Shown here: one piece after another, positions 566 through 45,748 of the stretch
How positions within the stretch are numbered: the first letter of the stretch is position 1
How the letters are laid out: every line of letters starts with the position of its first letter
Source: Acidobacteriaceae bacterium
GTDB lineage: Bacteria > Acidobacteriota > Terriglobia > Terriglobales > Acidobacteriaceae
Direction of reading: 5' to 3'
NCBI GenBank assembly: GCA_021323655.1
Contig: JAJPKO010000043.1
Span: 22,337-86,336 of the forward strand
Length of the DNA stretch: 64,000 bases
Translations under genes and position numbers: made by a program
Notes under the pieces: generated by a model
Databases searched by the model: none
Seen by the model: the letters and a program-made list of their open reading frames with translations, nothing else
Told to the model about the DNA's origin: nothing

Positions 566-1639
566 ATGAGAAGTGCTGCGCGCCTCAAGATGGGCTACTA
601 TCCGCTGCCTGAAAGCGAAGGGAAAAAGCTTCGCACACTCCTATCATTCGCCGACCAGGCTTCAGTGGTCGATCCCTGCGTCGGACAAGGCACAGCGCTA
701 GAACTTGTGACCAGCGATGCTTTCGTTCGACGCTATGGCATCGAACTTGATGCCGAGCGCGCACGCATCGCCAGTTCAAAAGGCATCGAGACCATCCAGG
801 GAAACACATTCGACGCCATTGCGAAGCCAGAATCGTTTTCTCTTGTCTACTTGAATCCGCCCTATGATTCTGAGATCGGCTCCATCGGCAATCGGCGCAT
901 GGAGGTAGTGTTTCTGGAACATGCCTACCGCTGGCTGCGAATGGAAGGCGTTCTGATTCTGGTGATTCCGTTCGAGCGGCTGCATGACTGCACCGGAATG
1001 CTGAGTTCGCACTTTGCCAACTTGAGCGCCTTTCGCATGACGGAGCTCGATTCGGTTCAGTACCGGCAGACCGCCATCCTCGGCATTCGCCGCGACATCA
1101 GAGGCTCGGCCGTCGAGAACAACAAACGACAATTGCAGAGTCTTGGCCTCTACGGAAGCTTCCAGAAACTGCCTGAGTTGCAGCCAGGTGCCTGCCCGAC
1201 CTATTCCGTGCCGCCCTCGGGCGAAGCGGCCATAAGCTATCGCGGCCTCCCGTACGATCTTCTGGAAGACTTGTTGCCGCATTCTGGAGCATGGAGGCAG
1301 GTAGCTCCTCTGCTGTTGCCGCACGATGATGTGGCAACCGGCCGGCCCATAACCCCGCTGCATGGCGGCCACGTTGGTCTCTTATGCACTGCAGGGCTGC
1401 TTAATGGTGTTTTCGGCGAGGGAGAGAACCGGCACATCGCGCGCTGGCGGTCGGTCAAGCTCGTGACAACCTTTGTTGAAGAGGACGGGGACGCCGAGAT
1501 CATTCATCATCGAGAACGCTGGACCAATGAACTACGCCTGGTTTACGCGGATGGAAGAACACTCAAGTTGACGGAGACTCCGGTGAAGAAGGAGGAGAAC
1601 GCCGATGGAGAATGCACATCTGCGGCTCGGGCTGCTTGA
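566..1639 (+). CDS. N6-adenine DNA methyltransferase-like protein (NPPY motif)
   Basis: VVDPCVGQGTALE looks like an AdoMet-binding motif I. VYLNPPYD is the catalytic motif IV of amino-methyltransferases. A GAGGTGA SD precedes the ATG at 566. Confidence 0.65.
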   Translation: MRSAARLKMGYYPLPESEGKKLRTLLSFADQASVVDPCVGQGTALELVTSDAFVRRYGIELDAERARIASSKGIETIQGNTFDAIAKPESFSLVYLNPPYDSEIGSIGNRRMEVVFLEHAYRWLRMEGVLILVIPFERLHDCTGMLSSHFANLSAFRMTELDSVQYRQTAILGIRRDIRGSAVENNKRQLQSLGLYGSFQKLPELQPGACPTYSVPPSGEAAISYRGLPYDLLEDLLPHSGAWRQVAPLLLPHDDVATGRPITPLHGGHVGLLCTAGLLNGVFGEGENRHIARWRSVKLVTTFVEEDGDAEIIHHRERWTNELRLVYADGRTLKLTETPVKKEENADGECTSAARAA

Positions 1640-3542: not shown

Positions 3543-5849
3543 ATGGAGACGACCTTCGATTACCTGCGCCAGTTTGGCCCTCTTCTGGCCGAGCGCATCC
3601 TCGAAACCTATCCTCCTCTCCAAAGCACAAAAGATCCGGTCGCACCCGGTCTCGCCGGGCTGCTGCGCAAAGCGCTACCCGCGCAGGCGGTGGCCATTAC
3701 CGGCACAGCAAAGTATCTCCGCAACGCCAAGGCTGCACGCATTGTCGCCGAATGTGGGGCGGGGAAGACGTTTATGGCCTTGGGGACGATCCATGTGCTA
3801 TCGGAGGGGCAGCCAACAACGACGCTGGTGATGTGCCCATCGCACATTACACACAAATGGGCGCGCGAGGTCCTCTTCACTATTCCGCGTGCCCGCACTT
3901 TCCTCATCGAAGACATGCGCAATGGCGGCGATCCCAGCCGTCCACACGGCGTGTGCGAGGTGAAGCTGAAGAATGGCAGAACTGTCTACGAGGGCAAGCG
4001 GCTCGCGCTGTCGGATATGCGGCAGATGGGCCGTAAGGAATGGCGGACGCGGTTTCCCGGACCGACGTTCTTCATTACCGGCAAGGACAAAGGCAAGCTC
4101 AGCTACTTCTGGGATCACGTCTACCTCAAAGCAAAGTCCGGTCCCAACCTCGGTGGTGTCATCAATCCCGATTCGGGGCTCGCCGTTCTCGATTCGGAGA
4201 TGGAAAAGCTCACCGCACTCGATTTCAGGGAGAAGGTAAAAGTCTCGGAATCTCTAACTGCCCGAAAAGGCGGAACTACTAGGTTTTCGGCGCTCTGGCA
4301 GGCGGACCGCAACAAGATTCAGCGCATGGCGCCCATCGAGTACATCGGCCGCTACATGGGCGGATGGTTCGACTTCGCGATTGCCGACGAACTGCATCAA
4401 CTGGCCGGCGACACCGCACAGGGCAACGGACTCGGCGTCCTCGGCCGTGCAGCGCAGAGATTAATCGCGCTTACAGGCACATTGATGGGCGGCTATGCCG
4501 ACGACCTCTTCAACGTCTTCTACCGCATGGAACCACGCGCCATGGTGCGCGAAGGTTTCGCCTATGGAGGCCAGGGACGGAGGGACTTTCAGGAACAATA
4601 CGGCGTTCTTGAAACCATCGAGAAGATCGAAAGCACGGACAACGCCTGCTCGCGGGCGACGAAGAAAACGGTGCGCGTCCTCCGCAAGCCGGGTGCCTCG
4701 CCGTTGCTCTTCGGCAAGTTCCTCATGAACACGACGGCCTTCCTGGCTCTCGAAGACATCTCCGACAACTTGCCTCGCTACGACGAGAGCGTGATCTCAG
4801 TCGATATGGACGAGACACTCCAGCAGGCCTACGAAAAGCTCGAAGAGGATATCCGCTCGGCGATGCGAGAGCATCGCGGCAACAAGAGCTTGATGAGCAT
4901 TCTGCTCAATACGCTCCTGTTATATCCCGACTACCCTTACGACTTCGACGAGATCTGGGCACGTGTTTTTGATCCGCAAACGCAGGAGTTCGTAAAGTTT
5001 CTGGTCACCACACCTCAAAACCTCACGCCGGATGCGCTGTACGCAAAAGAGCGCGCCCTCATCGCGGATGTGAAGGAGGAACTGCGCCAAGGGAGGCGGT
5101 GCCAGATTTATGCAACGTACACAGGCGAAAAGGATGTCAACGCACGCCTCGAAGCTGTTCTACGCCGGGAGGGCATCCGGGTTGCGGTACTTCGTTCCTC
5201 GGTGCCCACCGACAAGCGTGAGGATTGGTATGACCGCCAACTCAAGGCCGACACCGAAGTAGTTGTGTGCCATCCGAAACTCGTCGAAACAGGCCTCGAC
5301 CTGCTCGCGTTTCCGACGCTTTACTTCTACGAGACCGGATATTCGTTACACACCCTGCGCCAGGCGAGCAGGCGGTCCTGGCGCATTGGGCAAAGATTTC
5401 CGGTGCGGGTGAAGTTCGTGACCTACTCCGGGACGATGCAGGAAACGTGCCTTCGGCTGATGGGCAAGAAGATGCTGGTGGCCCTAATGATGGAAGGCAA
5501 GTTCTCCGGCGAAGGATTGCAGGCGCTTGACACAGACGAAGATCTGATGAGCGCCATGGCGCGCGAATTGGTAGAGAAGGCTGGTGTAGGTGAGTCCGCC
5601 AATGCTGTATGGAGAGAACTCGATCAGGAGCGCGAAAAGATCCAGCCGCGGCCTGCCGCCATGGAGCCTGAACAGGAAGAGGAGCTAGCCCCGGTGCTCA
5701 ATCTGCCTGAGGCGTCCGAACCGCAGCCAGGGCCCATGGCTTTCGGCATTCATCTGATGGAACCGCCTTCTGCGGCGAAGAAGCGGAAGAAAGCTCCGGT
5801 TTGGCCCACGGCTAAGGAAACCGATGCGCAACTCAGCCTCTTCGACTGA
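3543..5849 (+). CDS. SNF2/DEAD-like superfamily 2 helicase
   Basis: Walker A is ECGAGKTFMALG, motif II is ADELHQLAG, and the helicase C-terminal motif VI-like segment is LRQASRRSWRIGQ. An AAGGAGG SD lies 8 nt before the ATG. Confidence 0.8.
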   Translation: METTFDYLRQFGPLLAERILETYPPLQSTKDPVAPGLAGLLRKALPAQAVAITGTAKYLRNAKAARIVAECGAGKTFMALGTIHVLSEGQPTTTLVMCPSHITHKWAREVLFTIPRARTFLIEDMRNGGDPSRPHGVCEVKLKNGRTVYEGKRLALSDMRQMGRKEWRTRFPGPTFFITGKDKGKLSYFWDHVYLKAKSGPNLGGVINPDSGLAVLDSEMEKLTALDFREKVKVSESLTARKGGTTRFSALWQADRNKIQRMAPIEYIGRYMGGWFDFAIADELHQLAGDTAQGNGLGVLGRAAQRLIALTGTLMGGYADDLFNVFYRMEPRAMVREGFAYGGQGRRDFQEQYGVLETIEKIESTDNACSRATKKTVRVLRKPGASPLLFGKFLMNTTAFLALEDISDNLPRYDESVISVDMDETLQQAYEKLEEDIRSAMREHRGNKSLMSILLNTLLLYPDYPYDFDEIWARVFDPQTQEFVKFLVTTPQNLTPDALYAKERALIADVKEELRQGRRCQIYATYTGEKDVNARLEAVLRREGIRVAVLRSSVPTDKREDWYDRQLKADTEVVVCHPKLVETGLDLLAFPTLYFYETGYSLHTLRQASRRSWRIGQRFPVRVKFVTYSGTMQETCLRLMGKKMLVALMMEGKFSGEGLQALDTDEDLMSAMARELVEKAGVGESANAVWRELDQEREKIQPRPAAMEPEQEEELAPVLNLPEASEPQPGPMAFGIHLMEPPSAAKKRKKAPVWPTAKETDAQLSLFD

Positions 5850-6424: not shown

Positions 6425-7330
6425 ATGGTCACATATTCTTCCCATCCCAAAACCCTGGATGAGGTTCAGGCCGCCCTCCAAAAGCACCTCGGCGATCCGG
6501 GCAGAAAAAAGCCCAGCTATACGATTGACCGTCCTTCGCCCAACGCGAACCGGCTCTGCTTGGTCTCCCACGCCATGAACGACCTCCGCTACGAGGTGCG
6601 TCCGGATCTGCTGCAGATCGTCGCAAAGTCCTGGCGTCTTCATTTGTATCTCGACCCCTTCCTCGTAAGCTCAGAATTTGCCAAGGACAAATTTTGCCTC
6701 TTCATTGAAACTCATCCAGACGCTGACCACAGGCATTTCAGCTCGGTGTTGCGCGAACTGACCACGACCAAGCATCCGGCGTTCTACTCGCGGGTTCTGC
6801 GGGCATTCCGCCGTCTGGAAAACAATCTTCCCGCCACGCTGATCGATGAAGCGACGGCGGCGCCCACGGATTATCTGGTGGCGGTCGAAGCGCTGAGTTC
6901 AGCTCCCGAAACCACCGAACTGATTGCAGAGGACCCTTTTGTCGCTGCGAAGTTTCGCGGTCTCAAACGGAAGCAGCAGATGCTCGAAGCGTCCGGTGGG
7001 GCGCTGACTTCTGAGCAGGTTGCCGAGATTCTCGGCATCTCGCGGCAGGCTGTCGACAAACGGCGGGCTGCCGATCAACTCCTGGCGTTGACGCAGGGGA
7101 GGAGAGGGTACAGCTATCCCAGCTTCCAGTTCGAAGACGGTAAGACCATCTCGGGGCTCGAAGAGGTTCTCGCGGCACTCAAAGATCTCGATCCGTGGAT
7201 GCAGATGGTGTTCTTCAGCAGTCCGCACGAGCGGCTGGAAGGAAAGACTCCTATCGAAATACTCAAGAGAGGACGGGCGAGCGATGTCAAGGCTGCGGCC
7301 AGCGGATACGGCGAGCAAGGAGCCGTATGA
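6425..7330 (+). CDS. Xre/ParS/MbcA-type antitoxin (C-terminal DUF2384) with about 190 aa N-terminal extension
   Basis: The C-terminus LTSEQVAEILGISRQAVDKRR...PHERLEGKTPIEILKRG matches an HTH plus a DUF2384 toxin-binding domain. Its stop overlaps the RES gene start (ATGA). Confidence 0.65.
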   Translation: MVTYSSHPKTLDEVQAALQKHLGDPGRKKPSYTIDRPSPNANRLCLVSHAMNDLRYEVRPDLLQIVAKSWRLHLYLDPFLVSSEFAKDKFCLFIETHPDADHRHFSSVLRELTTTKHPAFYSRVLRAFRRLENNLPATLIDEATAAPTDYLVAVEALSSAPETTELIAEDPFVAAKFRGLKRKQQMLEASGGALTSEQVAEILGISRQAVDKRRAADQLLALTQGRRGYSYPSFQFEDGKTISGLEEVLAALKDLDPWMQMVFFSSPHERLEGKTPIEILKRGRASDVKAAASGYGEQGAV

Positions 7331-7944
7331 CGGATCAGCCAGGGGATCACCCGCTTCCTCATCGGGAACTCACGTCGCAGACACCGCTAATTTTTACGGT
7401 GAAGAGTAGCGATGTGCTCTATCGCCATCACCGCGCCGACAAGGATCCCATCTATTTCGGAACGAGCGGCAACAACCGCTTTGACGATCCGGATTGCCGA
7501 GCGGGTCACGCCTTCGGCGTGCTCTATTCCGGTGAAGACCCGCAATGTTGCTTCATCGAGTCCTGCGGCGGAACGACGGGAGTGCCTGCGGTCTCAGGGG
7601 CCTACCTCGATGCGCGCGCCATGGCCACGCTCGAGCTGACAGAAGATCTTCACTTCGTCGATCTCTACTCAACTGGAGGACTGACGCGGATTGGCGCCGA
7701 TGGCCGGCTTTTCACAGGCTCGTACAAAATCGCGCAGCGGTGGTCACGAGCATTGCGCGCTCATCCGTCTAAACCCGATGGAATCCGATACCCATCCCGC
7801 CATGACCACACACGCATCGCGTATGCGATCTTTTCGCGCCCTCCGTCAACGTTCAAGACCGGTTCACTTGGTTCCTTGATGGCACCCGGCAACAGAGCGC
7901 TTCTCGACGATATTCTTTCGCTTTATCAAGTCGAGCTGCTTTGA
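7327..7944 (+). CDS. RES-domain toxin (ParT/MbcT-like NAD-targeting family)
   Basis: Candidate RES-domain motifs, recognised by eye only, are NNRFDD (Arg), CFIESCGG (Glu) and IRYPSRHD (Ser). The ATG at 7327 overlaps the antitoxin stop by 4 nt. Confidence 0.7.
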   Translation: MTDQPGDHPLPHRELTSQTPLIFTVKSSDVLYRHHRADKDPIYFGTSGNNRFDDPDCRAGHAFGVLYSGEDPQCCFIESCGGTTGVPAVSGAYLDARAMATLELTEDLHFVDLYSTGGLTRIGADGRLFTGSYKIAQRWSRALRAHPSKPDGIRYPSRHDHTRIAYAIFSRPPSTFKTGSLGSLMAPGNRALLDDILSLYQVELL

Positions 7945-8018: not shown

Positions 8019-8549
8019 ATGCCGAAAGGTCCGTTTCTTCCATCCGCGTTTGTTTCGACCAAGTTCTCTTCGACAGCCGATAAGGCAGACTTTGGCAACG
8101 CACTGCTGCACTTCTTGGAAGCCAACTGCTCTCAGGAGTTGTTTACGAAAAGGCTCTACAACCGGCTCTCGATGACGTTTGGGCACATCGCTCATTATGA
8201 TCGCGCAGGGTTCTACGACACCTGGTTCACACGGGCACGGCATAAGGCGGCATTTATTGAGAAGACGCTGCGCTGGCCCTGTCACGGTGACCCGGAGTAC
8301 ACGTTCAGCGATGTTGAACATGCAATCCAGCGGGTGATGCGGGAACGCAACTATCTTGCCCGTTTCGAACTGAGAGCCGCGGACGAATTGCGTACTGCGG
8401 AACTCAAGGACCTTGAGCGACTGGAAGCGAAGTACCGCGCCCAGAGACCGCTTGAGGGTGCCACCGCCGCAAATGAACTTGCAACTCCGACCATGTCTGG
8501 CACAGTGAGCACTCCTCCCGAAGCCCCTATCCAGATCAGCCTGTTCTAA
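8019..8549 (+). CDS. Hypothetical protein
   Basis: 176 aa ORF with no recognised motif. It lies directly upstream of the PRTRC genes. Confidence 0.45.
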   Translation: MPKGPFLPSAFVSTKFSSTADKADFGNALLHFLEANCSQELFTKRLYNRLSMTFGHIAHYDRAGFYDTWFTRARHKAAFIEKTLRWPCHGDPEYTFSDVEHAIQRVMRERNYLARFELRAADELRTAELKDLERLEAKYRAQRPLEGATAANELATPTMSGTVSTPPEAPIQISLF

Positions 8550-8650: not shown

Positions 8651-8863
8651 ATGAGCACCCTGAAAGCCGAAGCCCTGGCGCGCGAGTTCAACTACAAGGG
8701 GATCCGCATCCCGGATCCCGGTCCTGACCTGACGGTCGAGCAGGTGCGCGATCTGCTCACCCCAAATTACCCGGAGATTGCCACGGCGACTGTCTCTGGT
8801 CCCGAGGCGACCGGGTCTGTCCTCCGCTACACCTTTAGCCGAGCCATTGGCACCAAGGGCTAA
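8651..8863 (+). CDS. PRTRC system protein C (ubiquitin-like beta-grasp)
   Basis: 70 aa. NYKGIRIPDPGPDLTVEQVRDLLTPNYPEIATATVSGPE...YTFSRAIGTKG matches my recollection of the TIGR03738 family, including the C-terminal GTKG. Confidence 0.75.
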   Translation: MSTLKAEALAREFNYKGIRIPDPGPDLTVEQVRDLLTPNYPEIATATVSGPEATGSVLRYTFSRAIGTKG

Positions 8864-8866
8864 GTC

Positions 8867-9085
8867 ATGCCGCCAGAGATAACGACTGCGGAGGAGTTGA
8901 TTACTTTCTTCGAGAAAAAGGCGACGGCTCCACCTCCGGCCTCCAGCCGTCTGCTCGCGAGGCACCTCCAATGCAAAGCATCTCTCACGGTCGCGCAGCT
9001 CCTCAGCGATGCAATGGAACGACACGCCGGCCGAGACAGCCATCCTCTCGCTGTGCCATCGGACCTGTTGCCTCCTCTGGGGTAG
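8867..9085 (+). CDS. Small hypothetical protein between PRTRC C and F
   Basis: 72 aa ORF that starts 4 nt after the protein C stop and ends 20 nt before the proposed protein F start. Confidence 0.35.
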   Translation: MPPEITTAEELITFFEKKATAPPPASSRLLARHLQCKASLTVAQLLSDAMERHAGRDSHPLAVPSDLLPPLG

Positions 9086-9105
9086 CAACACTCGCGCCCG
9101 CTTTT

Positions 9106-10059
9106 ATGCAGGCGCTGCCTGTGCTCGCAGCGATTCCAACCGCCTACGATCACGAACTCCGCGCTGAACTGCTCTACGATCTTTGTGCTGCGTTGGTGCG
9201 CGAAGGGCTTGCAGGACCGGAACTGTGGCGAAAGTGCGGAGGAAGCTCAGTCGTCTTTGCCGAAAGAGCCATTATGGAATCGATCGGCGAAGATCGATGG
9301 AACCTGCTCCAGCGCAACGTCGAGTACCATCTCTCGGTCAGCGATGTAGCCGAGCAGGATGGCGAAGAAACCCTTGTTGGCCGCGGCCGACTGGCAGTGA
9401 CCATCGAATGTGGCGGCGCTGGATACCTCAAGATCGGTCCGGCGATTGCGGCACTCGAAGAAGAGGTCGCGGGATTGGGAGCAGCTTTCTACTGGACGCT
9501 CATCTATGCGTTGTACCGCGTCATGCGCATCTATGGCCACGACGACGCCCTCCAGTACGAGGAACGAATGCGAGAGTACGCCGAAGAGGACGAGGAAAGC
9601 CGCGGACAGTACGAATTTCCCGAGGTCGAGAAGGCGTTGCCGGAGTGCATTCGGAAGAGTCTCAAGAAGGACGACCACCGCGGTTTCGTCCGGGATGCGC
9701 GGCGTCTTCTCGCACAACATCGGAACGGAAAATACCGTTCTTGGATTGAGCATGTTTTGAAGATCGCTCGACTCTCGCGGGTAAGGATGCGATCGAACTC
9801 TTGCGTCCGAGAAGATGGTGGGTACGACAGTATTCCGTTGCCGTCTCTGCTGGTTGCCTTCAAGGACCACGATGCCGTGGTCGCCTGTTTCGATGAAGAA
9901 AGCCAGTATATGCTTGAAGGCGATGCGGAGCCGAGTCTGAGCCTGACCTTCTCCCCAAGGAAACCTGAAGAGGTCAAGCAGGCGATACAAGCGGTCCGCC
10001 GCTTCGTCGCAGTCAATACCGAGCTGTTTGAGATGGTTGAGGAATTGAAGAGGTCATGA
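9106..10059 (+). CDS. PRTRC system protein F (start chosen at in-frame ATG 9106 rather than track start 8971)
   Basis: The call rests on size, position after protein C and acidic helical content. The 8971 start would overlap the preceding ORF by 115 nt. This is a family call from memory. Confidence 0.5.
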   Translation: MQALPVLAAIPTAYDHELRAELLYDLCAALVREGLAGPELWRKCGGSSVVFAERAIMESIGEDRWNLLQRNVEYHLSVSDVAEQDGEETLVGRGRLAVTIECGGAGYLKIGPAIAALEEEVAGLGAAFYWTLIYALYRVMRIYGHDDALQYEERMREYAEEDEESRGQYEFPEVEKALPECIRKSLKKDDHRGFVRDARRLLAQHRNGKYRSWIEHVLKIARLSRVRMRSNSCVREDGGYDSIPLPSLLVAFKDHDAVVACFDEESQYMLEGDAEPSLSLTFSPRKPEEVKQAIQAVRRFVAVNTELFEMVEELKRS

Positions 10060-10094
10060 TTAAGGCTATGTATGTCTCCCGTGCTCGAGCAAGT

Positions 10095-10838
10095 TCAATC
10101 TCCCATGGGTTCAAACGACCCGAGGAGGGGACTGCGGATCTCTCGTGGAGGTGTAGGTGTCCACCTCAGTGAGGGCGAACGTTCGTTGAGCCACTGTGCC
10201 AGACGCTCAAGCATCAGAACGGAACTTGAGACTAGCATGGGAGCCCCCAACCTCTGACCTAACTGCGCCAGCGGCGATGTATTTTGGTTGAGCGTGAGAA
10301 TAACCTCGAGCGATAACCCCACAATAAATAACAAGGTGATCCCCAGGAAATAGAGCCGTCTATTTCTATTTCCATAGAGAAAGCTAAAGAGGCCCCGGGT
10401 TCCAGCTTTCCATTCTGCGAAGAGAAAACCATCGTTATGGCCACCACCCCGCTCGCGTATCTCACAGTGAGTCAGACTAAGCTTTGGATGTTCTCCGGCA
10501 CCGAACTCGGTGAGAAGATCGACGAGCAGAGCATGGCCGGTGGGAACTAGGAGCCTTAGTTGCGGATTCCGAAGCCGTAGGAGCAGTTCCTTATTGTCGA
10601 GCACGCTCACGGAAGCGACTGTCCCATCTAACGCGTGTCGTGCAACAAATCGTACCGTCCTTTGGAAGCGGTGCAAATCAACCTCGGACATGTCGGCGAT
10701 TAGGGCATCAATTATGTCTGTTCTTTCAGCTGCGTCATCGGTTTCTATGAGGCTGTGCCTAGAAAAGGCAAGGCTCACCTCTCGAGCGACTTGGTCTTGC
10801 CAAGTTTCGGCTGCACGCAGGACGGCGATGATTCTCAT
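10095..10838 (-). CDS. Single-pass membrane protein, candidate effector partner of the TIR protein
   Basis: 247 aa with one hydrophobic helix, LYFLGITLLFIVGLSLEVILTL, near residue 170. Its ATG overlaps the TIR gene stop (ATGA). Confidence 0.55.
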   Translation of the reverse strand: MRIIAVLRAAETWQDQVAREVSLAFSRHSLIETDDAAERTDIIDALIADMSEVDLHRFQRTVRFVARHALDGTVASVSVLDNKELLLRLRNPQLRLLVPTGHALLVDLLTEFGAGEHPKLSLTHCEIRERGGGHNDGFLFAEWKAGTRGLFSFLYGNRNRRLYFLGITLLFIVGLSLEVILTLNQNTSPLAQLGQRLGAPMLVSSSVLMLERLAQWLNERSPSLRWTPTPPREIRSPLLGSFEPMGD

Positions 10839-11575
10839 ATCGTCGTGCCTCCAACTGTCACATGGCGTTGGTGCCTAGCGCCGGCAACATCGTCCCAGCT
10901 CAGGTCAAATTCTTGGCTGTCTGGGGCGGGTTGGCGAAGGAGGGTCCTGCCCTGGCCCGCCTGCAGAGATTGCCCTACGATAGCAACGAGCCACTCAGGT
11001 GTACCACCTGTGGCGGGCACAACGCCCAAATTAGAGATGGGCGTATTCGATGTATTCTTGAACTCCAGTGTGCGGCCGACAGCTTTGACCTCCAACGCAT
11101 CACTAGGAGCCTGGAACTTCTTTGCAAGCTGGAGGAGTGGTTCTTTATCGATCCCGCCACTGTACTCGAGTGAATTGGCGACGGCCTCTGCCAATTGCAG
11201 CCAACCGCTCTCGGTTTCTAGTGCTGGTGCTTGTAGTTCATCGAGACTCCACGGCAATCTCGATGGAGGCATATGAACAGCACACGGTATTATCCGCTTG
11301 TCATAAGCGAATGCAGCACCTATTTCAAAAGCCACCTCTTTGCTTTTGGTCGCTGCTGGCGTGCACCAGAGCACCACCAAGCTCGCATCACGGATTGCTT
11401 CGAGGATTACCTGTCGCCATTTTTCTCCCGCCTGGATCGCAGTGCCGGAAGAAGTGTTGAAGGTGCGCACTCTGTGCGAAAAGGCTTGACGAAGAGCGTA
11501 TGCAAGCGCATTGGCTTCATCTCTGTCCTCAGAGGAGTGGCTGACAAAAATAGGTCCAGTCACAAAGCCTCCCAT
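10835..11575 (-). CDS. TIR-domain protein with about 110 aa C-terminal domain of unknown function
   Basis: IFVSHSSEDRDEANAL begins the TIR domain. LVVLWCTPAATKSKEVAFEIGAAF carries the conserved SxxVxFE segment with the catalytic-position Glu. Confidence 0.7.
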   Translation of the reverse strand: MGGFVTGPIFVSHSSEDRDEANALAYALRQAFSHRVRTFNTSSGTAIQAGEKWRQVILEAIRDASLVVLWCTPAATKSKEVAFEIGAAFAYDKRIIPCAVHMPPSRLPWSLDELQAPALETESGWLQLAEAVANSLEYSGGIDKEPLLQLAKKFQAPSDALEVKAVGRTLEFKNTSNTPISNLGVVPATGGTPEWLVAIVGQSLQAGQGRTLLRQPAPDSQEFDLSWDDVAGARHQRHVTVGGTTI

Positions 11576-11817
11576 GGGTAGGAATGGTGTTTGCCTTTGA
11601 TGAATGCGTAAAAGCCATTGTATGCGAAATCTCCAACTTTGATTCGGAAGAATCAGACTCTCTAAGTCTGATGCGGATGGAGCGCTAGATTAGGTCAATT
11701 TAGGCCCGCTCAAACTGGCGATTTCGATCGGGACGTTTGTGGCACTCTGGCCCAAAAAGGTGAATGCCCGACGCCGGGTTCTCGGAATACTCCACAACTG
11801 CCGTTGGGAGGCACGGT

Positions 11818-12525
11818 ATGCAGGTACACATCTCGATCGGGGAGAACCATCGCTTCGAGTTGCGTGAGGCGCTGCTCGTCTACGGAGACCGCCAGCGGAG
11901 ATTTGTGACCCGGCACTCGGTCGTGCTGCATGACGGTGCGCCGCCAACTCTCGAACCTGCGCAGCCCCTAACCCTCGGCTTCGTCGAGTCGCTTGTTCGC
12001 TCGCTTTCGGGAGGCTCCACGGCCGAAGTGCTTCCCGAGAACGTGCTCGCCAAGGGCGAACGCATGATTGTCTGGTGGACCCCGCGATGCCGCCGCCAGA
12101 TGTTCTACGAAAACTCCGAACAGAAGGCCATACAGCTGAACGGCTGCGTGTTTCCGCAGCCGCCGCTGGTGTGGCGAGTTCAAAACGGCGATCTTAAAAT
12201 TCGTGCACTCGCCGAGAACAAACGACCGTGCGCTGCTACGACGCTCGCCGTCGCACCCTTTTGGAATCTTTCGGAAGACGGCCGTGTCTGCACCGGTTCG
12301 ATGCGCCGTCCCGACAATGACACGGTAGCCTCGATTCCGGAGTGGGAGAGAGGTTTCTATGAGAGTGCTTTCACGCACGCAAATGTCGGCCGATTGACAC
12401 GGCATCGCGGCGGTTTCGAGGGGTTGTGGAACGAACTCATAAACCAGCGCAAGCCGTTTCCCGAACTCACACTGATCCAGTTGCCGCAGACGCTCGCGCA
12501 ATTCGTGCGAGGAGAAAGGAGGTAG
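11818..12525 (+). CDS. PRTRC system protein B (E2/UBC-like, conserved Cys)
   Basis: APFWNLSEDGRVCTGSM resembles the HPN-x-G-x-C catalytic loop of E2 folds. It lies immediately upstream of the ThiF gene. GGGAG lies 7 nt before the ATG at 11818; the track start at 11764 has no SD. Confidence 0.55.
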   Translation: MQVHISIGENHRFELREALLVYGDRQRRFVTRHSVVLHDGAPPTLEPAQPLTLGFVESLVRSLSGGSTAEVLPENVLAKGERMIVWWTPRCRRQMFYENSEQKAIQLNGCVFPQPPLVWRVQNGDLKIRALAENKRPCAATTLAVAPFWNLSEDGRVCTGSMRRPDNDTVASIPEWERGFYESAFTHANVGRLTRHRGGFEGLWNELINQRKPFPELTLIQLPQTLAQFVRGERR

Positions 12526-12526
12526 G

Positions 12527-13345
12527 ATGCGTGTCGAACATACCTTGCCTCCCGATCTTTTGCAGAACCGCGCGGTCCAAATTCTTATCATCGGCGCAGG
12601 TGGGACCGGAAGCGCGATGGTGATGGGACTGCCATACCTCGATCAGGCAATGCGGGTGTGGGGCCACCGCTACGGACTCGCCGTCGCTTTGATGGACGCC
12701 GACATAGTATCGGAGACTAACTGCGTCCGCCAGCCCTTCTCTCTGTCCGACATCGGCCAGAACAAGGCGACAGTTCTGATCAATCGCATTAACCTCTTCT
12801 GGGGCACAAACTGGCAGGCCATCCCGAATCAATTTCATGCGCGCTCCTTCGAGCGACACTACGATCGCTGCCCGGACCTCGTGATCGGCTGCGTGGACAC
12901 CCGCGCCGCGCGGCGGGCGATAGAAGGCTCCTTTTCGCACGCTCTGAACCGCGTTTGCTATTGGCTTGACCTTGGCAACAGCGCGGCCAGCGGTCAATAT
13001 GTCCTCGGCCAGCCGCTCAACGCGCGAAACCGCAGGAGAGCGGAGCGGCTGCGTACGGTGAGTGAGTTATATCCAGAGATTGTGAACGAGAATGCTGGAG
13101 AAGATGCGTTGCCGAGTTGCTCTGCTGTCGAAGCGCTCGAGCGCCAGGAACCGTTCATCAATCAGACGCTCGCCGCAAGCGCACTCGCGATGCTCGCGCA
13201 ACTGTTCCGCTACGGAAAACTGCAACACCATGGCGCCTTTTTCAACGCCAGGACGGGGCAGATGTGCGCCCTGCCGATCGACCCGGCGCTGTGGCGCAAA
13301 ACGAGAAGGCGGACTAAGAGATCGCAGAGCGGCAAATTGACGTGA
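12527..13345 (+). CDS. PRTRC system ThiF-family (E1-like adenylyltransferase) protein
   Basis: ILIIGAGGTGSAMV is a Rossmann GxGxxG loop, and DADIVSETNCVRQ is the ThiF/MoeB-type motif. An AGGAGG SD is present. Confidence 0.75.
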   Translation: MRVEHTLPPDLLQNRAVQILIIGAGGTGSAMVMGLPYLDQAMRVWGHRYGLAVALMDADIVSETNCVRQPFSLSDIGQNKATVLINRINLFWGTNWQAIPNQFHARSFERHYDRCPDLVIGCVDTRAARRAIEGSFSHALNRVCYWLDLGNSAASGQYVLGQPLNARNRRRAERLRTVSELYPEIVNENAGEDALPSCSAVEALERQEPFINQTLAASALAMLAQLFRYGKLQHHGAFFNARTGQMCALPIDPALWRKTRRRTKRSQSGKLT

Positions 13346-13755: not shown

Positions 13756-14286
13756 ATGTTCAAAGAGCTTGCTCCGTACTTGCGGCAGCGCGCTGTCTTG
13801 CTGACGGTCACCAACGTAGAAGAAGACCAAATTCGTGTCAACGTCATTCCACAAAAGCTGAAAGATGGCGAGAACACTGCGCTGACCACGCCTCTAACCA
13901 TAACCGGGACCGCGGGGGACCTTGACCGCGATCTGCCTGCCACGCTGGTCAACTTTGTTTCCGCACACCTGCAATTGAAGAACACACTCGACCGCGCTAA
14001 GGCGGAGATGGAAGCTGCCGCGAAGACCGCTCAGGCAGAGGCCCGCGCAAAGAGTAAAACGACGGCGATGAAACCTATTCCGAAGGGGGAGCCTGCGAAG
14101 GCTGCGGAGACCGCTACACCAGCACCGCAGGCGAACCCTGTGCCTCCGAGGACTGCGAGCCTCTTCGACGCGGGCGCACATGCCGCAGTTCCTGCTCCTG
14201 AGGAAGTCGAGGAAGAGGAGATTCACGGTGAAACCAACGAAACGGAAGAGGAAGGCGACGACGAAGGGTTTGATGAGGCCGCGTGA
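13756..14286 (+). CDS. PRTRC system protein E
   Basis: MFKELAPYL...LLTVTNVEEDQIRVNVIPQKL..ALTTPLTITGTAGDLDRDLPATL is followed by an Ala/Lys/Glu-rich tail. This matches my recollection of TIGR03741. Confidence 0.6.
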   Translation: MFKELAPYLRQRAVLLTVTNVEEDQIRVNVIPQKLKDGENTALTTPLTITGTAGDLDRDLPATLVNFVSAHLQLKNTLDRAKAEMEAAAKTAQAEARAKSKTTAMKPIPKGEPAKAAETATPAPQANPVPPRTASLFDAGAHAAVPAPEEVEEEEIHGETNETEEEGDDEGFDEAA

Positions 14287-35812: not shown

Positions 35813-36307
35813 ATGGCGCAGCGACTGGATAGCATCACACAATTTCGAGTCGATCCGAAGGTACTGAGGGAAACGCTTCTCGTTCTACGGGAGTTCGGCA
35901 AACATTACTGTGAAGGACTTGTTCTCTGGGTTGGCAACATCAGTCGAGATTGCGTAGAAATCAGAGGGATTGCGGTACCGGATCAAACGCCACTGAAAAG
36001 CGAACACGGGGTCGGATATTTTGTAGAGGCAGACGTTCTCTTTACTTTGAACCGCCGGCTGTCCCAGGCGCAGCTCCAGCTGATTGCGCAAGTTCACAGC
36101 CATCCTAGCGATGCCTATCACTCCGAGACGGATGATCGCTATGCGATAGTCACAGCAAACGGCGGCCTATCTCTCGTAGTTCCAAACTTCGGCAACGCTC
36201 CGCCTGACCCCACGCAATGGGCAGTGTATCGACTTTTTAGTGGGGTTTGGAAAGAGCTTCAGCCAGATGAAGTTCGATCGACCATCATCGTTTCGCCCAT
36301 CGAATGA
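35813..36307 (+). CDS. JAB/MPN (JAMM) metalloprotease, candidate deubiquitinase/Ubl-processing enzyme (BilC-like)
   Basis: A Glu in CEGLVLWVG plus QVHSHPSDAYHSETD gives the E...HxHx7Sx2D JAMM motif. It is convergent with the E1 gene, with a 13 nt gap. Confidence 0.75.
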   Translation: MAQRLDSITQFRVDPKVLRETLLVLREFGKHYCEGLVLWVGNISRDCVEIRGIAVPDQTPLKSEHGVGYFVEADVLFTLNRRLSQAQLQLIAQVHSHPSDAYHSETDDRYAIVTANGGLSLVVPNFGNAPPDPTQWAVYRLFSGVWKELQPDEVRSTIIVSPIE

Positions 36308-36320
36308 TCGGTGTGTACGT

Positions 36321-37835
36321 TCATTTGTGTGACCACTTATCTCGGAAGGCGATTTGGTAGTCTTCGTCCAAGCAGATGCACCCGGGTTCTTTCGCTCTCG
36401 GAACAACCCAGACAGACGGCGGAGGAAACAGCACATCCCCCCACGTCACTAGCGTTTCGCGCTGCGATAGGTCCGCCAACTCCGGGTTGGTTCCTTTGAC
36501 CAGTTCCGCGGCCATTAGAACCCCGGCGAGCGCAGATTGATGAGCTAACGGCACGGTTTCAACTCGGTTTACGACCGGAAGTCTAATGGGAGCCGCTCCG
36601 CAGATTACATCCGTATAAAGTTCACCGAGTGGCCTTCCCTGCCATCCGGCTAGTTCAGCAGGATCGACTCCTAGCGTTCGAGCCGCCGTGGAAATATCCT
36701 GTTGCGACAGCGGCGTTCGTGTCACCCATAACGCAGCGGCCCGTTCTGGGGTAAGACCCAGCGCCCGTGCAGCTTGTTCGGTTTGCGAAAGAGAGCGTCC
36801 TTGAGGATGATACAAGCATGCGAGACAAGCCCTTTCATCTGAAGAGTGATGGCTCGACGCTCCCAAGGCGAGATCTCCCGTCCATCCATTGACAACGAGC
36901 CTTGGAAGCAACGCCTGGGCTGCTCGGCGAGTTTCTACGTTGTCCACTGAGATGCATATTGTCGGGCAGGCAATTCCGTTATGTTTATCCGCGTACTCCT
37001 CTAGGGATAATGCTGCCTTCTCCACTTTGATTGCGGAATATCGCAGCTCGCGAGCAGCAATCCAGGTTTTAGGCTTCGTGTGCTCGGCATCCTTGAACAA
37101 TCCGAGGACGTATCTCTGAAGATTAGATGCTTCGACGTGCTCCGGATCGAGCGCAATCAGGCGTCCACGGCGACCGGCATCGCGAGCAAGTGTCCACAGG
37201 GCGGAATTGGCAACGGCTCCGATTCCTGCAAGTAGAACCTCACCGAAGTCGCCTTCAGGCAAGCCTACATTATCCCTTTCCGTTTTCCCGAAGGTGAGCA
37301 AAGAGACGGAAACTTCCGCATCTGAGAAACGGTTTAAGAAGACTCGCCGAAATATTTCCGCGACTGCAAAGCACGCTGAAGCCCCCGCAGCGTATGGATT
37401 GGTTGCGCCATGCTCAGATTTGGGCGCAAACCAAAGTCGAGAGAACCACCCGTTGGCGGATGGCCAGATCCCAGCGGGCGAGGTCGTATGACCGATGCCT
37501 ATTGTTAGCTCCGCAGGTGCTGTATTGCAGAATTCAATTGCCGGGTTGATCCGAACTGCAAGTCTCCTCAATCGCTCTAGATCCTTCTGGGATCCATTTA
37601 TAGACAAGCTCGGATACAGTCGTGCAAGCAGATTCGTGGCAAGCTCGGCTGTCCACCACTCGTTTTCTGAAAGAGTTGCGCCGCACGCAAGGCCTACGCG
37701 GACATCTTTCAAGGATGCAGTTAGATCTTCGCGTCCAACGGACAGGTGACCACCAATCGCTGAATAGACACGATCGAAAAAGGGAGCGAGGGCCAATTTT
37801 AGGGCTTCTCCTCTGCCGCCCAAGTAAACTGGCAT
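36321..37835 (-). CDS. E1-like ThiF-family adenylyltransferase with N-terminal extra domain (BilD-like)
   Basis: LLAGIGAVANSALW is a nucleotide loop and ALDPEHVEASNLQRY is the ThiF motif. It also has CLACLY and a C-terminal CIC. The N-terminal 190 aa are consistent with an inactive adenylation-like domain. The start is uncertain because it overlaps the E2 gene by 37 nt. Confidence 0.7.
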   Translation of the reverse strand: MPVYLGGRGEALKLALAPFFDRVYSAIGGHLSVGREDLTASLKDVRVGLACGATLSENEWWTAELATNLLARLYPSLSINGSQKDLERLRRLAVRINPAIEFCNTAPAELTIGIGHTTSPAGIWPSANGWFSRLWFAPKSEHGATNPYAAGASACFAVAEIFRRVFLNRFSDAEVSVSLLTFGKTERDNVGLPEGDFGEVLLAGIGAVANSALWTLARDAGRRGRLIALDPEHVEASNLQRYVLGLFKDAEHTKPKTWIAARELRYSAIKVEKAALSLEEYADKHNGIACPTICISVDNVETRRAAQALLPRLVVNGWTGDLALGASSHHSSDERACLACLYHPQGRSLSQTEQAARALGLTPERAAALWVTRTPLSQQDISTAARTLGVDPAELAGWQGRPLGELYTDVICGAAPIRLPVVNRVETVPLAHQSALAGVLMAAELVKGTNPELADLSQRETLVTWGDVLFPPPSVWVVPRAKEPGCICLDEDYQIAFRDKWSHK

Positions 37836-38425
37836 CCGGACTCAGTGATGGAACACTGGAGGCTGGGAAGGTCCACGCACACGCGCCAGACAGAAAGAAT
37901 TATCGAGAAAAGATTCATACTCGGCCGATAAAGAAGCCATTCGTCTCCAGAGTGCTGAGGGTGGGAGTGGTACTCGCGAATACCGCGGACACAGAGAAAT
38001 GGCATGTGAGTCAGCGGATGATCAGCAATTAGGACTTCATGCGGACCACGACCTACGTTGTACTCCAGAGCTCGAAACATCGTATTGAACGACAATGGAG
38101 TTCCTGTCCAAGGGTTCAAAAACACCAGCGACGGCGGCTCGAGATCATAATCCGAGAGATCAAATCGCGCCGTGAAAGCAGACGGGGCAAGCGCTTCTAT
38201 ATCCTGCGCAACCAGAACAGGCGCCCCGAGGAATAAATTCCCCTGTCGTAACTGGGTTGTCCAGATGCGCAAGGGGTGATGAGCCACAAACAACAGATCA
38301 AGAAGGGGGTAGGCAGAGGAGCCTAGAAGGTATACACCGCGACGCTCGAGGTCAGCTCGCCTCTCTTGAAGTCGGGAGAGCTCTCGGTCGTATTTGGATC
38401 GATTGACCTTGGGATCAATCCTCAT
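37799..38425 (-). CDS. Prokaryotic E2-like protein (BilB-like)
   Basis: It lies between the Ubl and E1 genes. PFLCVRGIREYHSHPQH carries a conserved-looking Cys in an E2-like loop. Its ATG overlaps the Ubl stop (ATGA). Confidence 0.55.
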   Translation of the reverse strand: MRIDPKVNRSKYDRELSRLQERRADLERRGVYLLGSSAYPLLDLLFVAHHPLRIWTTQLRQGNLFLGAPVLVAQDIEALAPSAFTARFDLSDYDLEPPSLVFLNPWTGTPLSFNTMFRALEYNVGRGPHEVLIADHPLTHMPFLCVRGIREYHSHPQHSGDEWLLYRPSMNLFSIILSVWRVCVDLPSLQCSITESGCQFTWAAEEKP

Positions 38426-39642: not shown

Positions 39643-40527
39643 GTGGATCAACTGGAGCAATTGAAAGAGCTGTTATCTGAGCCGAAACAGAGAATCAAAC
39701 TGCACGATTTCATTGCAGATGTTACGAGGAAACTGGTTGCCGACGTCGGCCAGGACAGGCTTCCGGTGCAAGTGTCCTCGGATGGCAATTCATTCATCGT
39801 TCGTCTTCAAGAGTATGAGCATGCCCTTCACACGGTCATTCCGCTCCAAATGCTTCTGGGCCGATGGGGATTGCAGGAACATGTCGATATCGCGGCTCTT
39901 CCATTGCGGAGACTTGCAGGCGGTATTGCGGCTACGGGCGGCAATACTTATTTGATAGAAGCGCGCTGGTATCCGATCTTTTTACTGCTTTACGCGAGCT
40001 CTATCGGCGCTATCTCTGGAAACAACTGCCAGGTTGTTTACAAACTTGCCCACGCTCCCGTGCCCAACCCCTATGGCAGAGAAAATCATGACATTCTCCT
40101 CTCTGCGGCATTTAAGGCAATGGCAGAAATCCAGGATGGATTCAAGCTTTTTCCCGGATTAGACCGCAAATACACCCCGCGAAGCGAACATGTCTACACG
40201 CTGCTTGAACCGTGCGCCGATAAGACCCTCTATCTCGGTCCCGAATATGAAGAACTCTTCGACAGGGTCGAAATCCTGTTGGCCATCGAGTACATGCATA
40301 TCGAACATCCCGAGCCAATTGCCAAGGAGGAGAGTCCCTGGGGCCCGGTCGGAAGGTTTGGGTGGAAGAGATCGTCCCGCAATCCCTTGGACCGATTGAT
40401 CGCTGAAGCTTCTGCCGCCGGGAAGAGTTGGGAACCCGCCCGCGCCGGTCTGTTCGGGAGTTCCAGCGCGAGGTTCGTCGAACTTGCAGAGGGACTTGCT
40501 CGCATGGTGCGTCGTGCTTCCTGGTGA
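39643..40527 (+). CDS. Hypothetical protein (GTG start, no motif recognised)
   Basis: 294 aa ORF, convergent with the TIR gene. Confidence 0.4.
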   Translation: MDQLEQLKELLSEPKQRIKLHDFIADVTRKLVADVGQDRLPVQVSSDGNSFIVRLQEYEHALHTVIPLQMLLGRWGLQEHVDIAALPLRRLAGGIAATGGNTYLIEARWYPIFLLLYASSIGAISGNNCQVVYKLAHAPVPNPYGRENHDILLSAAFKAMAEIQDGFKLFPGLDRKYTPRSEHVYTLLEPCADKTLYLGPEYEELFDRVEILLAIEYMHIEHPEPIAKEESPWGPVGRFGWKRSSRNPLDRLIAEASAAGKSWEPARAGLFGSSSARFVELAEGLARMVRRASW

Positions 40528-45674: not shown

Positions 45675-45748
45675 CGGTGTTGGAGTCCACCGGAACAGCT
45701 CACACGGGCAAATGACTCCTCGAAGCGCGAAAACTTGGAGGAGTCATG
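45675..45748 (+). promoter_or_regulatory. Fluoride riboswitch (crcB motif) B with SD/start-codon-sequestering hairpin
   Basis: The sequence is CGGTG TTGGAGTC CACCG GAACA GCTC-ACAC-GGGC AAATGACTCCTC. The tail ATGACTCCTC (45712-45721) is perfectly complementary to GAGGAGTCAT (45738-45747), which covers the SD and the AT of the ATG at 45746. Confidence 0.8.

Follow-up and report, generated by a model that had tools for sequence, protein, structure and literature searches.

Results

Two minus-strand genes lie within an acidobacterial PRTRC cassette

The window analysed here, the whole stretch of 64,000 nucleotides, harbors a PRTRC (ParB-related, ThiF-related) cassette, whose proteins are covered by the models TIGR03734-03742. 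PRTRC_C, PRTRC_B, PRTRC_ThiF and PRTRC_E all score above the NCBIfam thresholds and follow each other in conserved order (Table 1). The ORF between C and B scores 11.8-12.4 bits against TIGR03742 (cut-off 58.4), although this model is its top match. Its 36 homologues (52-78% identity) are all placed between C and B, and the ORF is F-like by position only. The arrangement corresponds to an acidobacterial PRTRC variant of the order C-F-B-ThiF-(119 aa)-E, in which F is highly divergent and no protein A is detected between B and ThiF. A first-pass annotation of the DNA had protein F ending at 10059 and protein B starting at 11818. Both coordinates hold, and the start codon of B (ATG 11818, MQVHISIGENHRFE) is conserved in relatives according to the junction alignment, but F falls short of the TIGR03742 threshold.

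The same annotation had described two minus-strand genes between F and B that are joined by an ATGA overlap. Indeed, ORFs of 246 aa (TIR) and 247 aa (partner) are present and overlap at 10835-10838. Homologues of both occur in other genomes at 37-92% identity, and both ORFs are real genes. While the TIR reading frame exists as described, the gene probably starts further downstream, at GTG 11563, giving a protein of 242 aa: the homologues all begin with M-T/N-G-P at this codon, which is preceded by GGGAGG.

Table 1. Features of the PRTRC cassette and of the inserted segment (positions in the window).
Feature	Position	Strand	Evidence or remark
PRTRC protein C (prokaryotic ubiquitin-like)	8651..8863	+	TIGR03738 4.6e-25, PF14454
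PRTRC F-like gene	8971..10059	+	36 homologues in same place between C and B; weak TIGR03742
Inserted cargo segment, 1,752 bp	10053..11804	-	two-gene operon, ~230 bp upstream non-coding, ~40 bp downstream
Partner, putative membrane effector	10095..10838	-	247 aa; AF2; family alignment; topology analysis
TIR protein (ThsB-like)	10835..11575	-	Pfam TIR_2, ThsB_TIR; AF2; Foldseek; E84
Non-coding leader of inserted operon	11576..11804	-	presumed promoter region; GC 0.49
Orphaned 3' tail of F gene, WEARYAGTHLDRGEPSLRVA and stop	11805..11867	+	overlaps start of B
PRTRC protein B (Prok-E2_D)	11818..12525	+	TIGR03737 9.6e-55, PF14460 2e-40; junction alignment
PRTRC ThiF-family E1-like protein	12527..13345	+	TIGR03736 6.7e-81
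PRTRC protein E	13756..14286	+	TIGR03741 3.2e-18

The gene pair is cargo inserted into the F|B junction

The first-pass annotation had described F and B as normally adjacent and co-oriented, and had therefore taken the pair for inserted cargo. Comparison with other PRTRC loci bears this out. In annotated proteobacterial PRTRC plasmids B follows F directly with a gap of 10-14 nt, and F abuts B in most of the 36 related acidobacterial cassettes (32 have a gap of 17 bp or less, taken from tblastn alignment ends). The TIR-partner pair is absent from these plasmids and from all 36 related C-F-B-ThiF-E cassettes. When the junction was aligned with four related loci (L007, L008, L010 and L023), homology was lost after GAGGAATTGAAGAGG and regained at TGGGAGGCACGGTATG, and each breakpoint is resolved to a few bases. 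The inserted segment severs the last ~20 codons of F. The truncated F-like gene now ends in EELKRS with a stop codon provided by the insert, and the orphan tail survives downstream, where its translation matches in frame the F C-terminus of L008 (WEKRHAGTNLDRGEPS). These data demonstrate that the pair was inserted between F and B and confirm the insertion point. In two further lineages this junction is occupied by other cargo.

The segment had also appeared AT-rich by eye. Its GC content is 0.534 as compared to 0.586 and 0.588 in the flanks, with the leader as the lowest-GC part, and GC3 is 0.53-0.54 in the insert versus 0.62-0.76 in the cassette. The dip is nevertheless modest, since the insert lies only at the 7.5th percentile of GC among all equal-sized segments of the 64 kb. 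We looked for transposon-like terminal repeats and target-site duplications at the insertion ends and found no direct or inverted repeats above chance; the sole repeats are 11-nt, chance-level matches (TGAAGAGGTCA at 9966 and 10046; CTCCCATGGGT at 10100 and 11569). The insert holds no IS or integrase gene. Scans for sigma-70 consensus sites and terminators gave no convincing site in its leader or tail, so the promoter assigned to the leader is presumptive.

We wondered whether the pair might be an integral or ancestral PRTRC component after all, working together with the E1/E2/ubiquitin-like proteins in the way that some ThsB proteins cooperate with Cap2/Cap3. Its position between E2-like and ubiquitin-like genes would fit this idea, as would the existence of Thoeris operons with Cap2/Cap3. 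However, the pair is missing from every related cassette and from the canonical plasmids, it lies on the opposite strand, its insertion truncated F, the C-terminus of the TIR protein is not conserved, and none of the 11 other loci at which we found the pair contains PRTRC genes. We therefore consider this explanation extremely improbable; as a general statement it is refuted. A functional link to PRTRC analogous to Cap2/Cap3 was rejected on the same evidence. With respect to the cassette, the pair is foreign cargo and not a member.

The first gene encodes a TIR protein predicted to cleave NAD

The product of the upstream gene matches Pfam TIR_2 (PF13676) over residues 9-115 with E=4e-15 and 56.8 bits (cut-off 28). 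It also passes the ThsB_TIR model, albeit marginally (5e-5, 24.0 bits versus a cut-off of 21.2). PADLOC returned weak matches throughout, with ThsB models at 3.5e-4 to 6e-3 and a SAVED-TIR effector model as the best match at 1e-4. From these PADLOC matches, signalling TIRs cannot be told apart from effector TIRs that deplete NAD.

The AF2 model (pLDDT 84.5) comprises a TIR domain of flavodoxin-like fold (~6-120), a helical linker (122-151) and a C-terminal seven-stranded β-sandwich (160-241). The first-pass annotation had left a C-terminal domain of 110 aa unassigned. Pfam indeed assigns nothing to the C-terminal ~125 aa, and the model now suggests a β-sandwich in this region. It is variable across the family (conservation 0.50) and lacks any invariant residue, in contrast to the conserved TIR domain (0.76). 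Foldseek matched the model with a probability of 1.00 to the SPARTA TIR, SpbK (TMt 0.72), MAL (TMt 0.71) and RUN1. Glu84 is invariant in all 16 members of the TIR family and aligns with the catalytic glutamate of AbTIR (in WTNYEL) and of BtTIR (in WTEYEL), part of a WxxxE-equivalent motif. The proposed TIR identity thus withstands the profile, fold and catalytic-residue checks. Judged by these comparisons, the gene encodes a genuine TIR protein with Glu84 as its catalytic residue, and NAD cleavage is predicted.

The partner is predicted to form a C-terminal membrane hairpin

The partner had been described as lacking Macro and SIR2 features. We agree: neither domain was found by Pfam, NCBIfam or PADLOC, nor among the Foldseek matches. 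More generally, scans with Pfam (at E≤0.01), NCBIfam, PADLOC and PHROG gave no match, a profile search against PDB sequences found nothing and Foldseek against PDB and BFVD returned no match at E<1e-3. Its top-ranking folds (spermine synthase N-domain, Roco COR and TBP-like) were considered as functional leads and dismissed, as they align at a TM of about 0.3 and reflect a generic two-layer α/β sandwich. An exhaustive HMMER search with the partner profile against 1.84 billion representatives retrieved 20 proteins, all of them from the partner's own family, and no remote relatives.

The AF2 model of the partner is confident (pLDDT 89.2). Its N-terminal α/β domain (1-148) carries the invariant motifs DMS, RLR, CExRERG and GFLxGxW, and the invariant residues R88, R90, R128 and R130 are located on two predicted strands (84-90 and 120-128). 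A single TM helix had been reported for the protein, and one helix is strongly hydrophobic (residues ~162-183, KD 2.3). AF2, however, gives two helices packed against each other as a hairpin. TM1 (158-183) displays the invariant residues I167, F171, G174 and E178 on one helical face, and TM2 (189-219, LRLGAPMLVSSxVLxLER) is the most conserved segment of the whole protein (0.80). The short loop between them is devoid of K/R, the flanks are Arg-rich and a strand (223-227) follows TM2. The model thus shows the partner as a predicted cytosolic domain followed by a C-terminal two-helix membrane hairpin of N-in/C-in topology, rather than a protein with one TM helix.

TIR and partner form a strictly linked module that is found near defence genes at several loci

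The TIR gene lies directly upstream of the partner gene in 12 of 12 loci whose contexts are otherwise unrelated. These loci range from 55% to 70% GC and belong to at least two phyla, including Acidobacteriota and Solirubrobacterales. Sequence identities of the two proteins run in parallel (72/72, 70/70, 48/46 and so on), and the TIR family is found only together with this partner family. The pair is hence shown to be a strictly linked two-gene module. More distant TIR relatives (P0063, P0064) are part of other operons without the partner and offer no mechanistic clue.

At one locus (L001), PD-Lambda-5 is encoded directly downstream of the pair. Elsewhere the pair is found near Mrr and a type I RM system (L002), near GmrSD, Dam, EcoRV and an integrase (L050), near a GAP1/DO-GTPase/GASH conflict system (L006), or with S_4TM and a STAND-like ATPase nearby. 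Altogether, RM, PD-Lambda-5, GmrSD, conflict-system or mobile-element genes occur in 6-7 of the 12 contexts, a sample too small for statistics, and ~5 of 12 are housekeeping-like or uninformative.

The mobile island in the window also carries a RES-Xre toxin-antitoxin pair. One may therefore ask whether our pair is itself a toxin-antitoxin or addiction-type module, or has some other accessory role at the membrane by which its host mobile elements and islands are stabilised, rather than acting against phages. Its genes are small and tightly coupled, they are found near integrases, Fic and VapBC, and several contexts have no recognisable defence genes, all of which would suit such a role. Yet neither protein resembles known toxin-antitoxin families in Pfam, NCBIfam or PADLOC, the immediate neighbours are repeatedly RM, PD-Lambda-5 and GmrSD systems, and operons of a TIR and an effector in defence islands have a strong record as immune systems. 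We regard this explanation as improbable.

Discussion

We asked which known system the pair resembles most. Thoeris type II combines a ThsB TIR protein with a Macro-TM effector that responds to His-ADPR. As in our pair, a TIR protein and a protein with a cytosolic domain and two helices are encoded in a two-gene operon, and abortive infection through membrane disruption is predicted for both. In contrast to type II, the partner has no Macro domain by Pfam, PADLOC or Foldseek and its domain order is reversed, with the sensor-like domain at the N-terminus and the TM hairpin at the C-terminus. It also differs from the SIR2-SLOG effector of type I, as Pfam, NCBIfam, PADLOC and Foldseek find neither SIR2 nor SLOG. 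Types V, VI, VII and X (DUF2270, DUF6650-TM, SLATT and ion-channel effectors) likewise join a TIR protein to a small membrane-spanning protein in defence islands. According to a recent preprint, operons of a TIR and a TM effector are experimentally validated for types II, V, VI, VII and X, and the effectors of the latter four types are predicted to oligomerise and to form positively charged inter-protomer pockets (Yirmiya et al., 2025; bioRxiv 10.64898/2025.12.03.692087). The partner, however, has another predicted fold and no match to PF10028, PF20355, SLATT or ion-channel models at E≤0.01. Thoeris has recently been widened to 11 validated and ~29 predicted types. The preprint has 18 effector classes as unverified, and the TIR motifs VAFEIGA, FNTSSG and AFEIG are absent from those rows of its Table S1 that were examined. 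The partner thus fits no known Thoeris effector type, which sets it apart from the named types and not from the 18 unverified classes.

Beyond Thoeris, the membrane effectors of CBASS and Pycsar (Cap14, Cap15, S-2TMbeta, PycTM) share the concept of a cytosolic domain that senses a small molecule, about two TM helices and killing by membrane disruption. They show no sequence or fold similarity to the partner, and the enzyme upstream of the partner is a TIR protein instead of a CD-NTase or cyclase. Among solved structures, effector TIRs (SPARTA TIR-APAZ, SpbK, TIR-SAVED) come nearest to the TIR domain in fold and have the catalytic glutamate in common with it, but the pair is devoid of APAZ, Argonaute, SAVED or a phage-portal-sensing context, and its TIR protein has a β-sandwich and a membrane partner instead.

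A Thoeris-II-like logic without Macro or SIR2, as suggested by the first-pass annotation, would agree with the conserved module, its defence-island neighbours and the lack of a known effector domain. We lean, at somewhat better than an even chance, towards 10053-11804 being a two-gene module of the Thoeris kind that acts against phages and was taken up by horizontal transfer into the F|B junction of this PRTRC cassette, itself part of a mobile island in a soil acidobacterium. As for its candidate function, abortive infection by a Thoeris-like system that uses a new effector is the most likely reading. The chain of events that we infer, from signal production through ligand binding by the N-terminal domain and membrane disruption to an anti-phage outcome, would begin with the TIR protein as sensor and signal generator. 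Its variable C-terminal β-sandwich may detect an infection cue, upon which the TIR domain with Glu84 would turn NAD+ into an ADP-ribose-derived messenger. This messenger may bind to the partner, at its conserved cytosolic domain rich in Arg and aromatic residues, and cause oligomerisation or gating of the C-terminal helical hairpin, which would breach or depolarise the inner membrane and abort the infection. Because the partner matches no known signal-receptor domain (none of SLOG, Macro, SAVED, CARF, DUF2270, DUF6650 or SLATT), the ligand binding in this scheme is purely what we infer. Moreover, the TIR family occurs only with this one partner and is less modular than typical ThsB clusters, so direct protein-protein control could take the place of a diffusible signal.

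The roles of the two proteins might also be reversed. The TIR protein would then be the toxic, NAD+-depleting NADase effector and the membrane protein a sensor or regulator. On sensing a perturbed envelope or the entry of a phage genome, the membrane protein would release or activate the TIR protein; alternatively, it would keep the TIR protein inactive at the membrane. Many bacterial TIRs are NAD-depleting effectors, and a caution has been raised that TIR operons still to be verified may belong to this group (Yirmiya et al., 2025; 10.64898/2025.12.03.692087). A SAVED-TIR effector as best PADLOC match and the effector TIRs of SPARTA and SpbK as nearest structural matches point the same way, and translational coupling by ATGA together with the exclusive one-to-one co-occurrence of the families fits a physical complex. 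On the other hand, sensors normally diversify, whereas the strong conservation of TM2 is more typical of a pore or channel that executes; it is the variable β-sandwich of the TIR protein that looks like a sensing module. In addition, the TM protein is always the effector in the validated two-gene operons of a TIR and a TM protein. We therefore judge a reversal of roles unlikely, though less so than an addiction module.

In the boldest form of this reading, the unprecedented α/β domain of the partner would be the receptor for a messenger derived from ADPR, possibly a novel one, and would gate the conserved helical hairpin as a pore. The location of the module may matter as well. The F|B and neighbouring PRTRC junctions carry different cargo by lineage, among it a PADLOC candidate system and a gene for superinfection immunity, which suggests that ubiquitin-like cassettes on mobile elements serve as hotspots for defence cargo; our literature search for such a role of PRTRC gave nothing relevant. 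That the partner belongs to a new class of proteins, receptors of a TIR signal and effectors at once, which would define a new Thoeris type, and that F|B and other intergenic junctions of acidobacterial PRTRC cassettes are recurrent landing sites for defence cargo is, as a joint proposal, tentative and to our minds a little short of evenly balanced. If true, defence cargo on conjugative or mobile islands would repeatedly land at PRTRC junctions, and such hotspots would help in the search for new systems in non-model bacteria.

Several of the expanded Thoeris types are still without a known signal. The module described here would add a Thoeris effector for whose putative ligand-sensing domain Pfam, PDB and BFVD reveal no relative. 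This effector is found in soil phyla that have been sampled poorly (Acidobacteriota, Actinomycetota), and it is extremely rare: 1.84 billion representative proteins include ~20 clusters of it at 50% identity. Taken together, these properties make the compact module of ~1.5 kb a candidate in which a new receptor fold, and perhaps a new TIR product, might be found.

Insertion of a TIR gene pair into a PRTRC cassette

Two minus-strand genes, encoding a TIR protein and a putative membrane partner, separate the F-like gene from B in the PRTRC (ParB-related, ThiF-related) cassette. Both ORFs, and the ATGA stop/start overlap that joins them (10835-10838), were found as the first-pass annotation had described them. 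They are real genes, since homologues with 37-92% identity occur in other assemblies; the partner itself is listed in an Alloacidobacterium sp. MAG as a hypothetical protein. For the TIR gene, GTG 11563 is the most likely start, because every homologue begins M-T/N-G-P there and GGGAGG lies just upstream.

Features of the window and of related PRTRC cassettes
Feature	Location	Position	Strand	Remarks
Partner ORF	window	10095-10838	-	247 aa
TIR ORF	window	10835-11575	-	246 aa as first called
PRTRC C	window	8651-8863		NCBIfam and Pfam
F-like ORF	window	8971-10059		top NCBIfam match TIGR03742, 12 bits (cut-off 58.4)
PRTRC B	window	start ATG 11818		NCBIfam and Pfam
PRTRC ThiF	window	12527-13345		NCBIfam and Pfam
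PRTRC E	window	13756-14286		NCBIfam and Pfam
RES-domain toxin and preceding HTH gene	window	6425-7944	+	toxin PF08808, 4.5e-16
176-aa ORF	window	8019-8549		no assignment
F/B insert	L021/L022	7090-8506		1.4 kb
F/B insert	L031	7081-8974		1.9 kb
DUF5131 and partner	L016	9002-10714		match PADLOC candidate systems PDC-M41/M30, 5.6e-102
448-aa protein	L015	8938-10284		no assignment
Superinfection-immunity protein	L019	8897-9229		Imm_superinfect
RibD_C reductase	L007	9056-9589		
Second TIR gene	window	40604-41575	-	323 aa; Pfam TIR_2 1e-12, TIR 1.4e-7
294-aa ORF	window	39643-40527		no assignment
Prok-JAB	window	35813-36307	+	second ubiquitin-like cluster
Prok-E2_C and ThiF fusion	window	36321-37835	-	second ubiquitin-like cluster
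Metal_CEHH protein	window	37799-38425	-	second ubiquitin-like cluster
Dynamin-family GTPase	window	45746-47851		701 aa
Two tandem MutS_V-domain paralogues	window	59213-62418		
DUF6094 methyltransferase	window	566-1639		
SNF2/DpdE-like helicase	window	3543-5849		left end of island

The label 'protein F' given earlier to ORF 8971-10059 did not hold at the profile level, and this ORF is F-like by position only. The proposed start of B was retained, its ATG start MQVHISIGENHRFE being kept in relatives. The canonical order in annotated proteobacterial plasmids is ParB-E-C-F-B-A-ThiF; F and B share an orientation there and are separated by 10-14 nt. Scanning the F-like protein against one genome per species yielded 36 acidobacterial loci, all ordered C-F-B-ThiF-(119 aa)-E; tblastn alignments place the end of F and the start of B at most 17 nt apart in 32 of them. 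F and B are normally adjacent and co-oriented, as the first-pass annotation had proposed. Neither the TIR gene nor the partner occurs in any of the 36, and PRTRC genes are absent from all 11 other loci that carry the pair, which refutes the idea that the pair is a component of the PRTRC cassette.

Junction alignments located both breakpoints. The relatives' homology extends through ...GAGGAATTGAAGAGG (about 10052) on the F side and restarts at TGGGAGGCACGGTATG (11805) on the B side. In relatives the F frame continues ...EEL-x-E-WEKRHAGTNLDRGEPS... and extends across the start of B; in the window it terminates ...EELKRS at a stop codon supplied by the insert, and the cut-off F tail, WEARYAGTHLDRGEPSLRVA plus stop, is still present at 11805-11867. 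The breakpoints and the severed tail define an insert of 1,752 bp (10053-11804), and we regard the suspected cargo insertion as demonstrated. GC content is 0.534 in the insert and 0.586 and 0.588 in the cassette flanks, while GC3 is 0.53-0.54 in the TIR and partner genes and 0.62-0.76 in the PRTRC genes. The impression that the segment is more AT-rich than its flanks holds; within the 64 kb as a whole, the insert lies only at the 7.5th percentile of all equal-sized windows. Neither terminal repeats nor a target duplication nor a mobility gene were found at or in the insert.

Such use of PRTRC junctions recurs. Among the related cassettes, L021/L022 carry an unrelated F/B insert with a 202-aa ORF, and L031 one with two TM proteins of 177 and 189 aa; none of these proteins matched Pfam, PADLOC or PHROG. 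The F-side homology break is at the identical point in both inserts, as is the B-side restart in L031; the L021 stretch aligned began inside B. Variable cargo also occupies the junctions ThiF/119-aa gene and 119-aa gene/E (L016, L015, L019, L007). A literature search found nothing on repeated cargo at PRTRC intergenic junctions, and this secondary observation may be new.

The cassette has further peculiarities. ThiF directly follows B (12525-13345), leaving no space for a protein A gene, and gene spacing indicates the same in 36/36 relatives. E stands after ThiF in acidobacterial cassettes, compared with before C in the canonical order (L043/L044, proteobacterial loci). In the intact cassette of L008 the F frame continues at least ~40 nt beyond B's ATG (region 7080-7140); this ATG and the sequence after it are also kept in other relatives. 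The long overlap suggests translational coupling of B to F, which the insertion would have broken in the window, where B's ATG now has GGGAGG 8 nt upstream. Just upstream of C lies a RES-domain toxin. The gene before it encodes a 301-aa HTH protein whose Pfam matches all fall below threshold, the Xre/MbcA/ParS antitoxin middle domain scoring best (18.7 bits; cut-off 27.8). The toxin is followed by a 176-aa ORF that tblastn also placed upstream of C in 14/36 related loci. The last four rows of the table list further genes of possible conflict-system interest. No tRNA gene was found anywhere in the 64-kb window.

The pair is a strictly linked module

The pair forms an autonomous module whose linkage is strict: in 12/12 examinable loci, including the window, the TIR gene directly precedes a co-oriented partner gene. 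Two gene-caller omissions were settled by tblastn. The hosts, among them Acidobacteriota and Solirubrobacterales, span 55% to 70% GC. Identities to the window's TIR and partner proteins track each other across loci (72/72, 70/70, 48/46 and 50/44 among others). Both families are very small. A set of 1.84 billion proteins holds 20 representatives of the partner family at 50% identity, each ~240 aa long, and the TIR family comprises ~25 clusters; the next TIR appears only at E~1e-14, and these more distant relatives belong to different operons.

The pair often has defence or mobility genes as neighbours: PD-Lambda-5 directly downstream of the pair (L001; subunit A, 6.5e-130, and a D12 methylase), an Mrr-like nuclease and type I RM (L002), integrase, GmrSD, Dam and EcoRV (L050), a GAP1/DO-GTPase/GASH/GAAD conflict system (L006), S_4TM and a STAND-like ATPase (a JGI contig), and integrase and Fic genes (L045). 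About five of the 12 contexts are housekeeping-like or uninformative. A defence function is plausible, and a non-defence addiction module is less likely.

A TIR protein with a variable domain and a putative hairpin partner

The first protein is a TIR protein, as proposed: its Pfam TIR_2 score of 56.8 bits is a pass, and ThsB_TIR is cleared by a narrow margin (24 against a cut-off of 21.2). In its AF2 model (pLDDT 84.5) a helical linker (122-151) joins the TIR domain to a seven-strand beta-sandwich (160-241). Foldseek matched the N-terminal domain to SPARTA TIR, SpbK, MAL and plant TIRs, and the C-terminal domain to Fn3/Ig-like modules of glycosidases. E84 in S-K-E-V-A-F-E-I-G is invariant in the family; in the alignment it corresponds to the WxxYEL-motif glutamate of AbTIR and BtTIR, their catalytic residue. 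Mean majority fraction is 0.76 in the TIR domain (31 invariant positions) and 0.50 in the beta-sandwich (none), as would be expected if a fast-evolving recognition module were attached to a conserved catalytic one.

The window encodes a second, unrelated TIR protein with a ~200-aa C-terminal region lacking assignment. Its gene appears solitary, convergent with a 294-aa ORF, and ~3 kb from the Cap2/Cap3-like machinery of a second ubiquitin-like conjugation cluster (35813-38425) outside the PRTRC island.

Searches of the partner against Pfam, NCBIfam, PADLOC, PHROG and PDB sequences gave no match. Its AF2 model is confident (pLDDT 89.2, pTM 0.78): an alpha/beta domain (1-148), a short amphipathic helix, helix 1 (158-183), a 5-residue loop, helix 2 (189-219) and a strand (223-227). 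Foldseek found nothing at E<1e-3 in PDB and BFVD, the best matches being generic two-layer sandwiches (TM ~0.3). Strong hydrophobicity is confined to helix 1 (KD up to 2.36), and a single TM helix had been predicted. The K/R-poor loop (no K/R in 18/20 sequences, never more than one), the Arg-rich flanks on both sides and the conserved strand after helix 2, which may return to the N-domain, argue instead for an N-in/C-in hairpin. Conservation is highest in helix 2 (LRLGAPMLVSSxVLxLER; 0.80), and the conserved helix 1 positions I167, F171, G174 and E178 share one face. In the soluble domain, R88 and R90 (one predicted strand), E126, R128 and R130 (another), F58, F138 and W143 are among the invariant positions. 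Judged from sequence and secondary structure, this domain may carry a basic and aromatic patch, as is usual in nucleotide-signal receptors.

A candidate Thoeris type

The best-supported reading is a Thoeris-like abortive-infection system, in which the beta-sandwich would sense infection, the TIR protein would make an NAD-derived messenger, the partner's cytosolic domain would bind it and the hairpin would then disrupt the membrane. Precedent for a TIR with a membrane effector is strong: TIRs are paired with membrane-spanning effectors in Thoeris types II, V, VI (in part), VII and X. TM proteins or DUFs make up many of the 29 effector classes predicted in a recent survey (Yirmiya et al., 2025, bioRxiv 10.64898/2025.12.03.692087). 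In the main rival reading, NAD depletion by the TIR would be the effector step, and the membrane partner would act as sensor or regulator of the TIR. Exclusive one-to-one pairing and translational coupling fit this rival equally well, and the survey's authors voice the same caveat for unverified TIR operons (Yirmiya et al., 2025).

The logic of the Thoeris-like reading is closest to types II, V and VII. The partner matches none of the named effector types (SIR2-SLOG, Macro, DUF2270, DUF6650, SLATT, ion channel), in agreement with the earlier remark that it lacks Macro and SIR2 features. Motifs of the TIR protein were not found in the available part of the survey's Table S1 (Yirmiya et al., 2025). 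The pair is a candidate for a new Thoeris type; it has a receptor-like domain of unrecognised kind and comes from under-sampled soil phyla.
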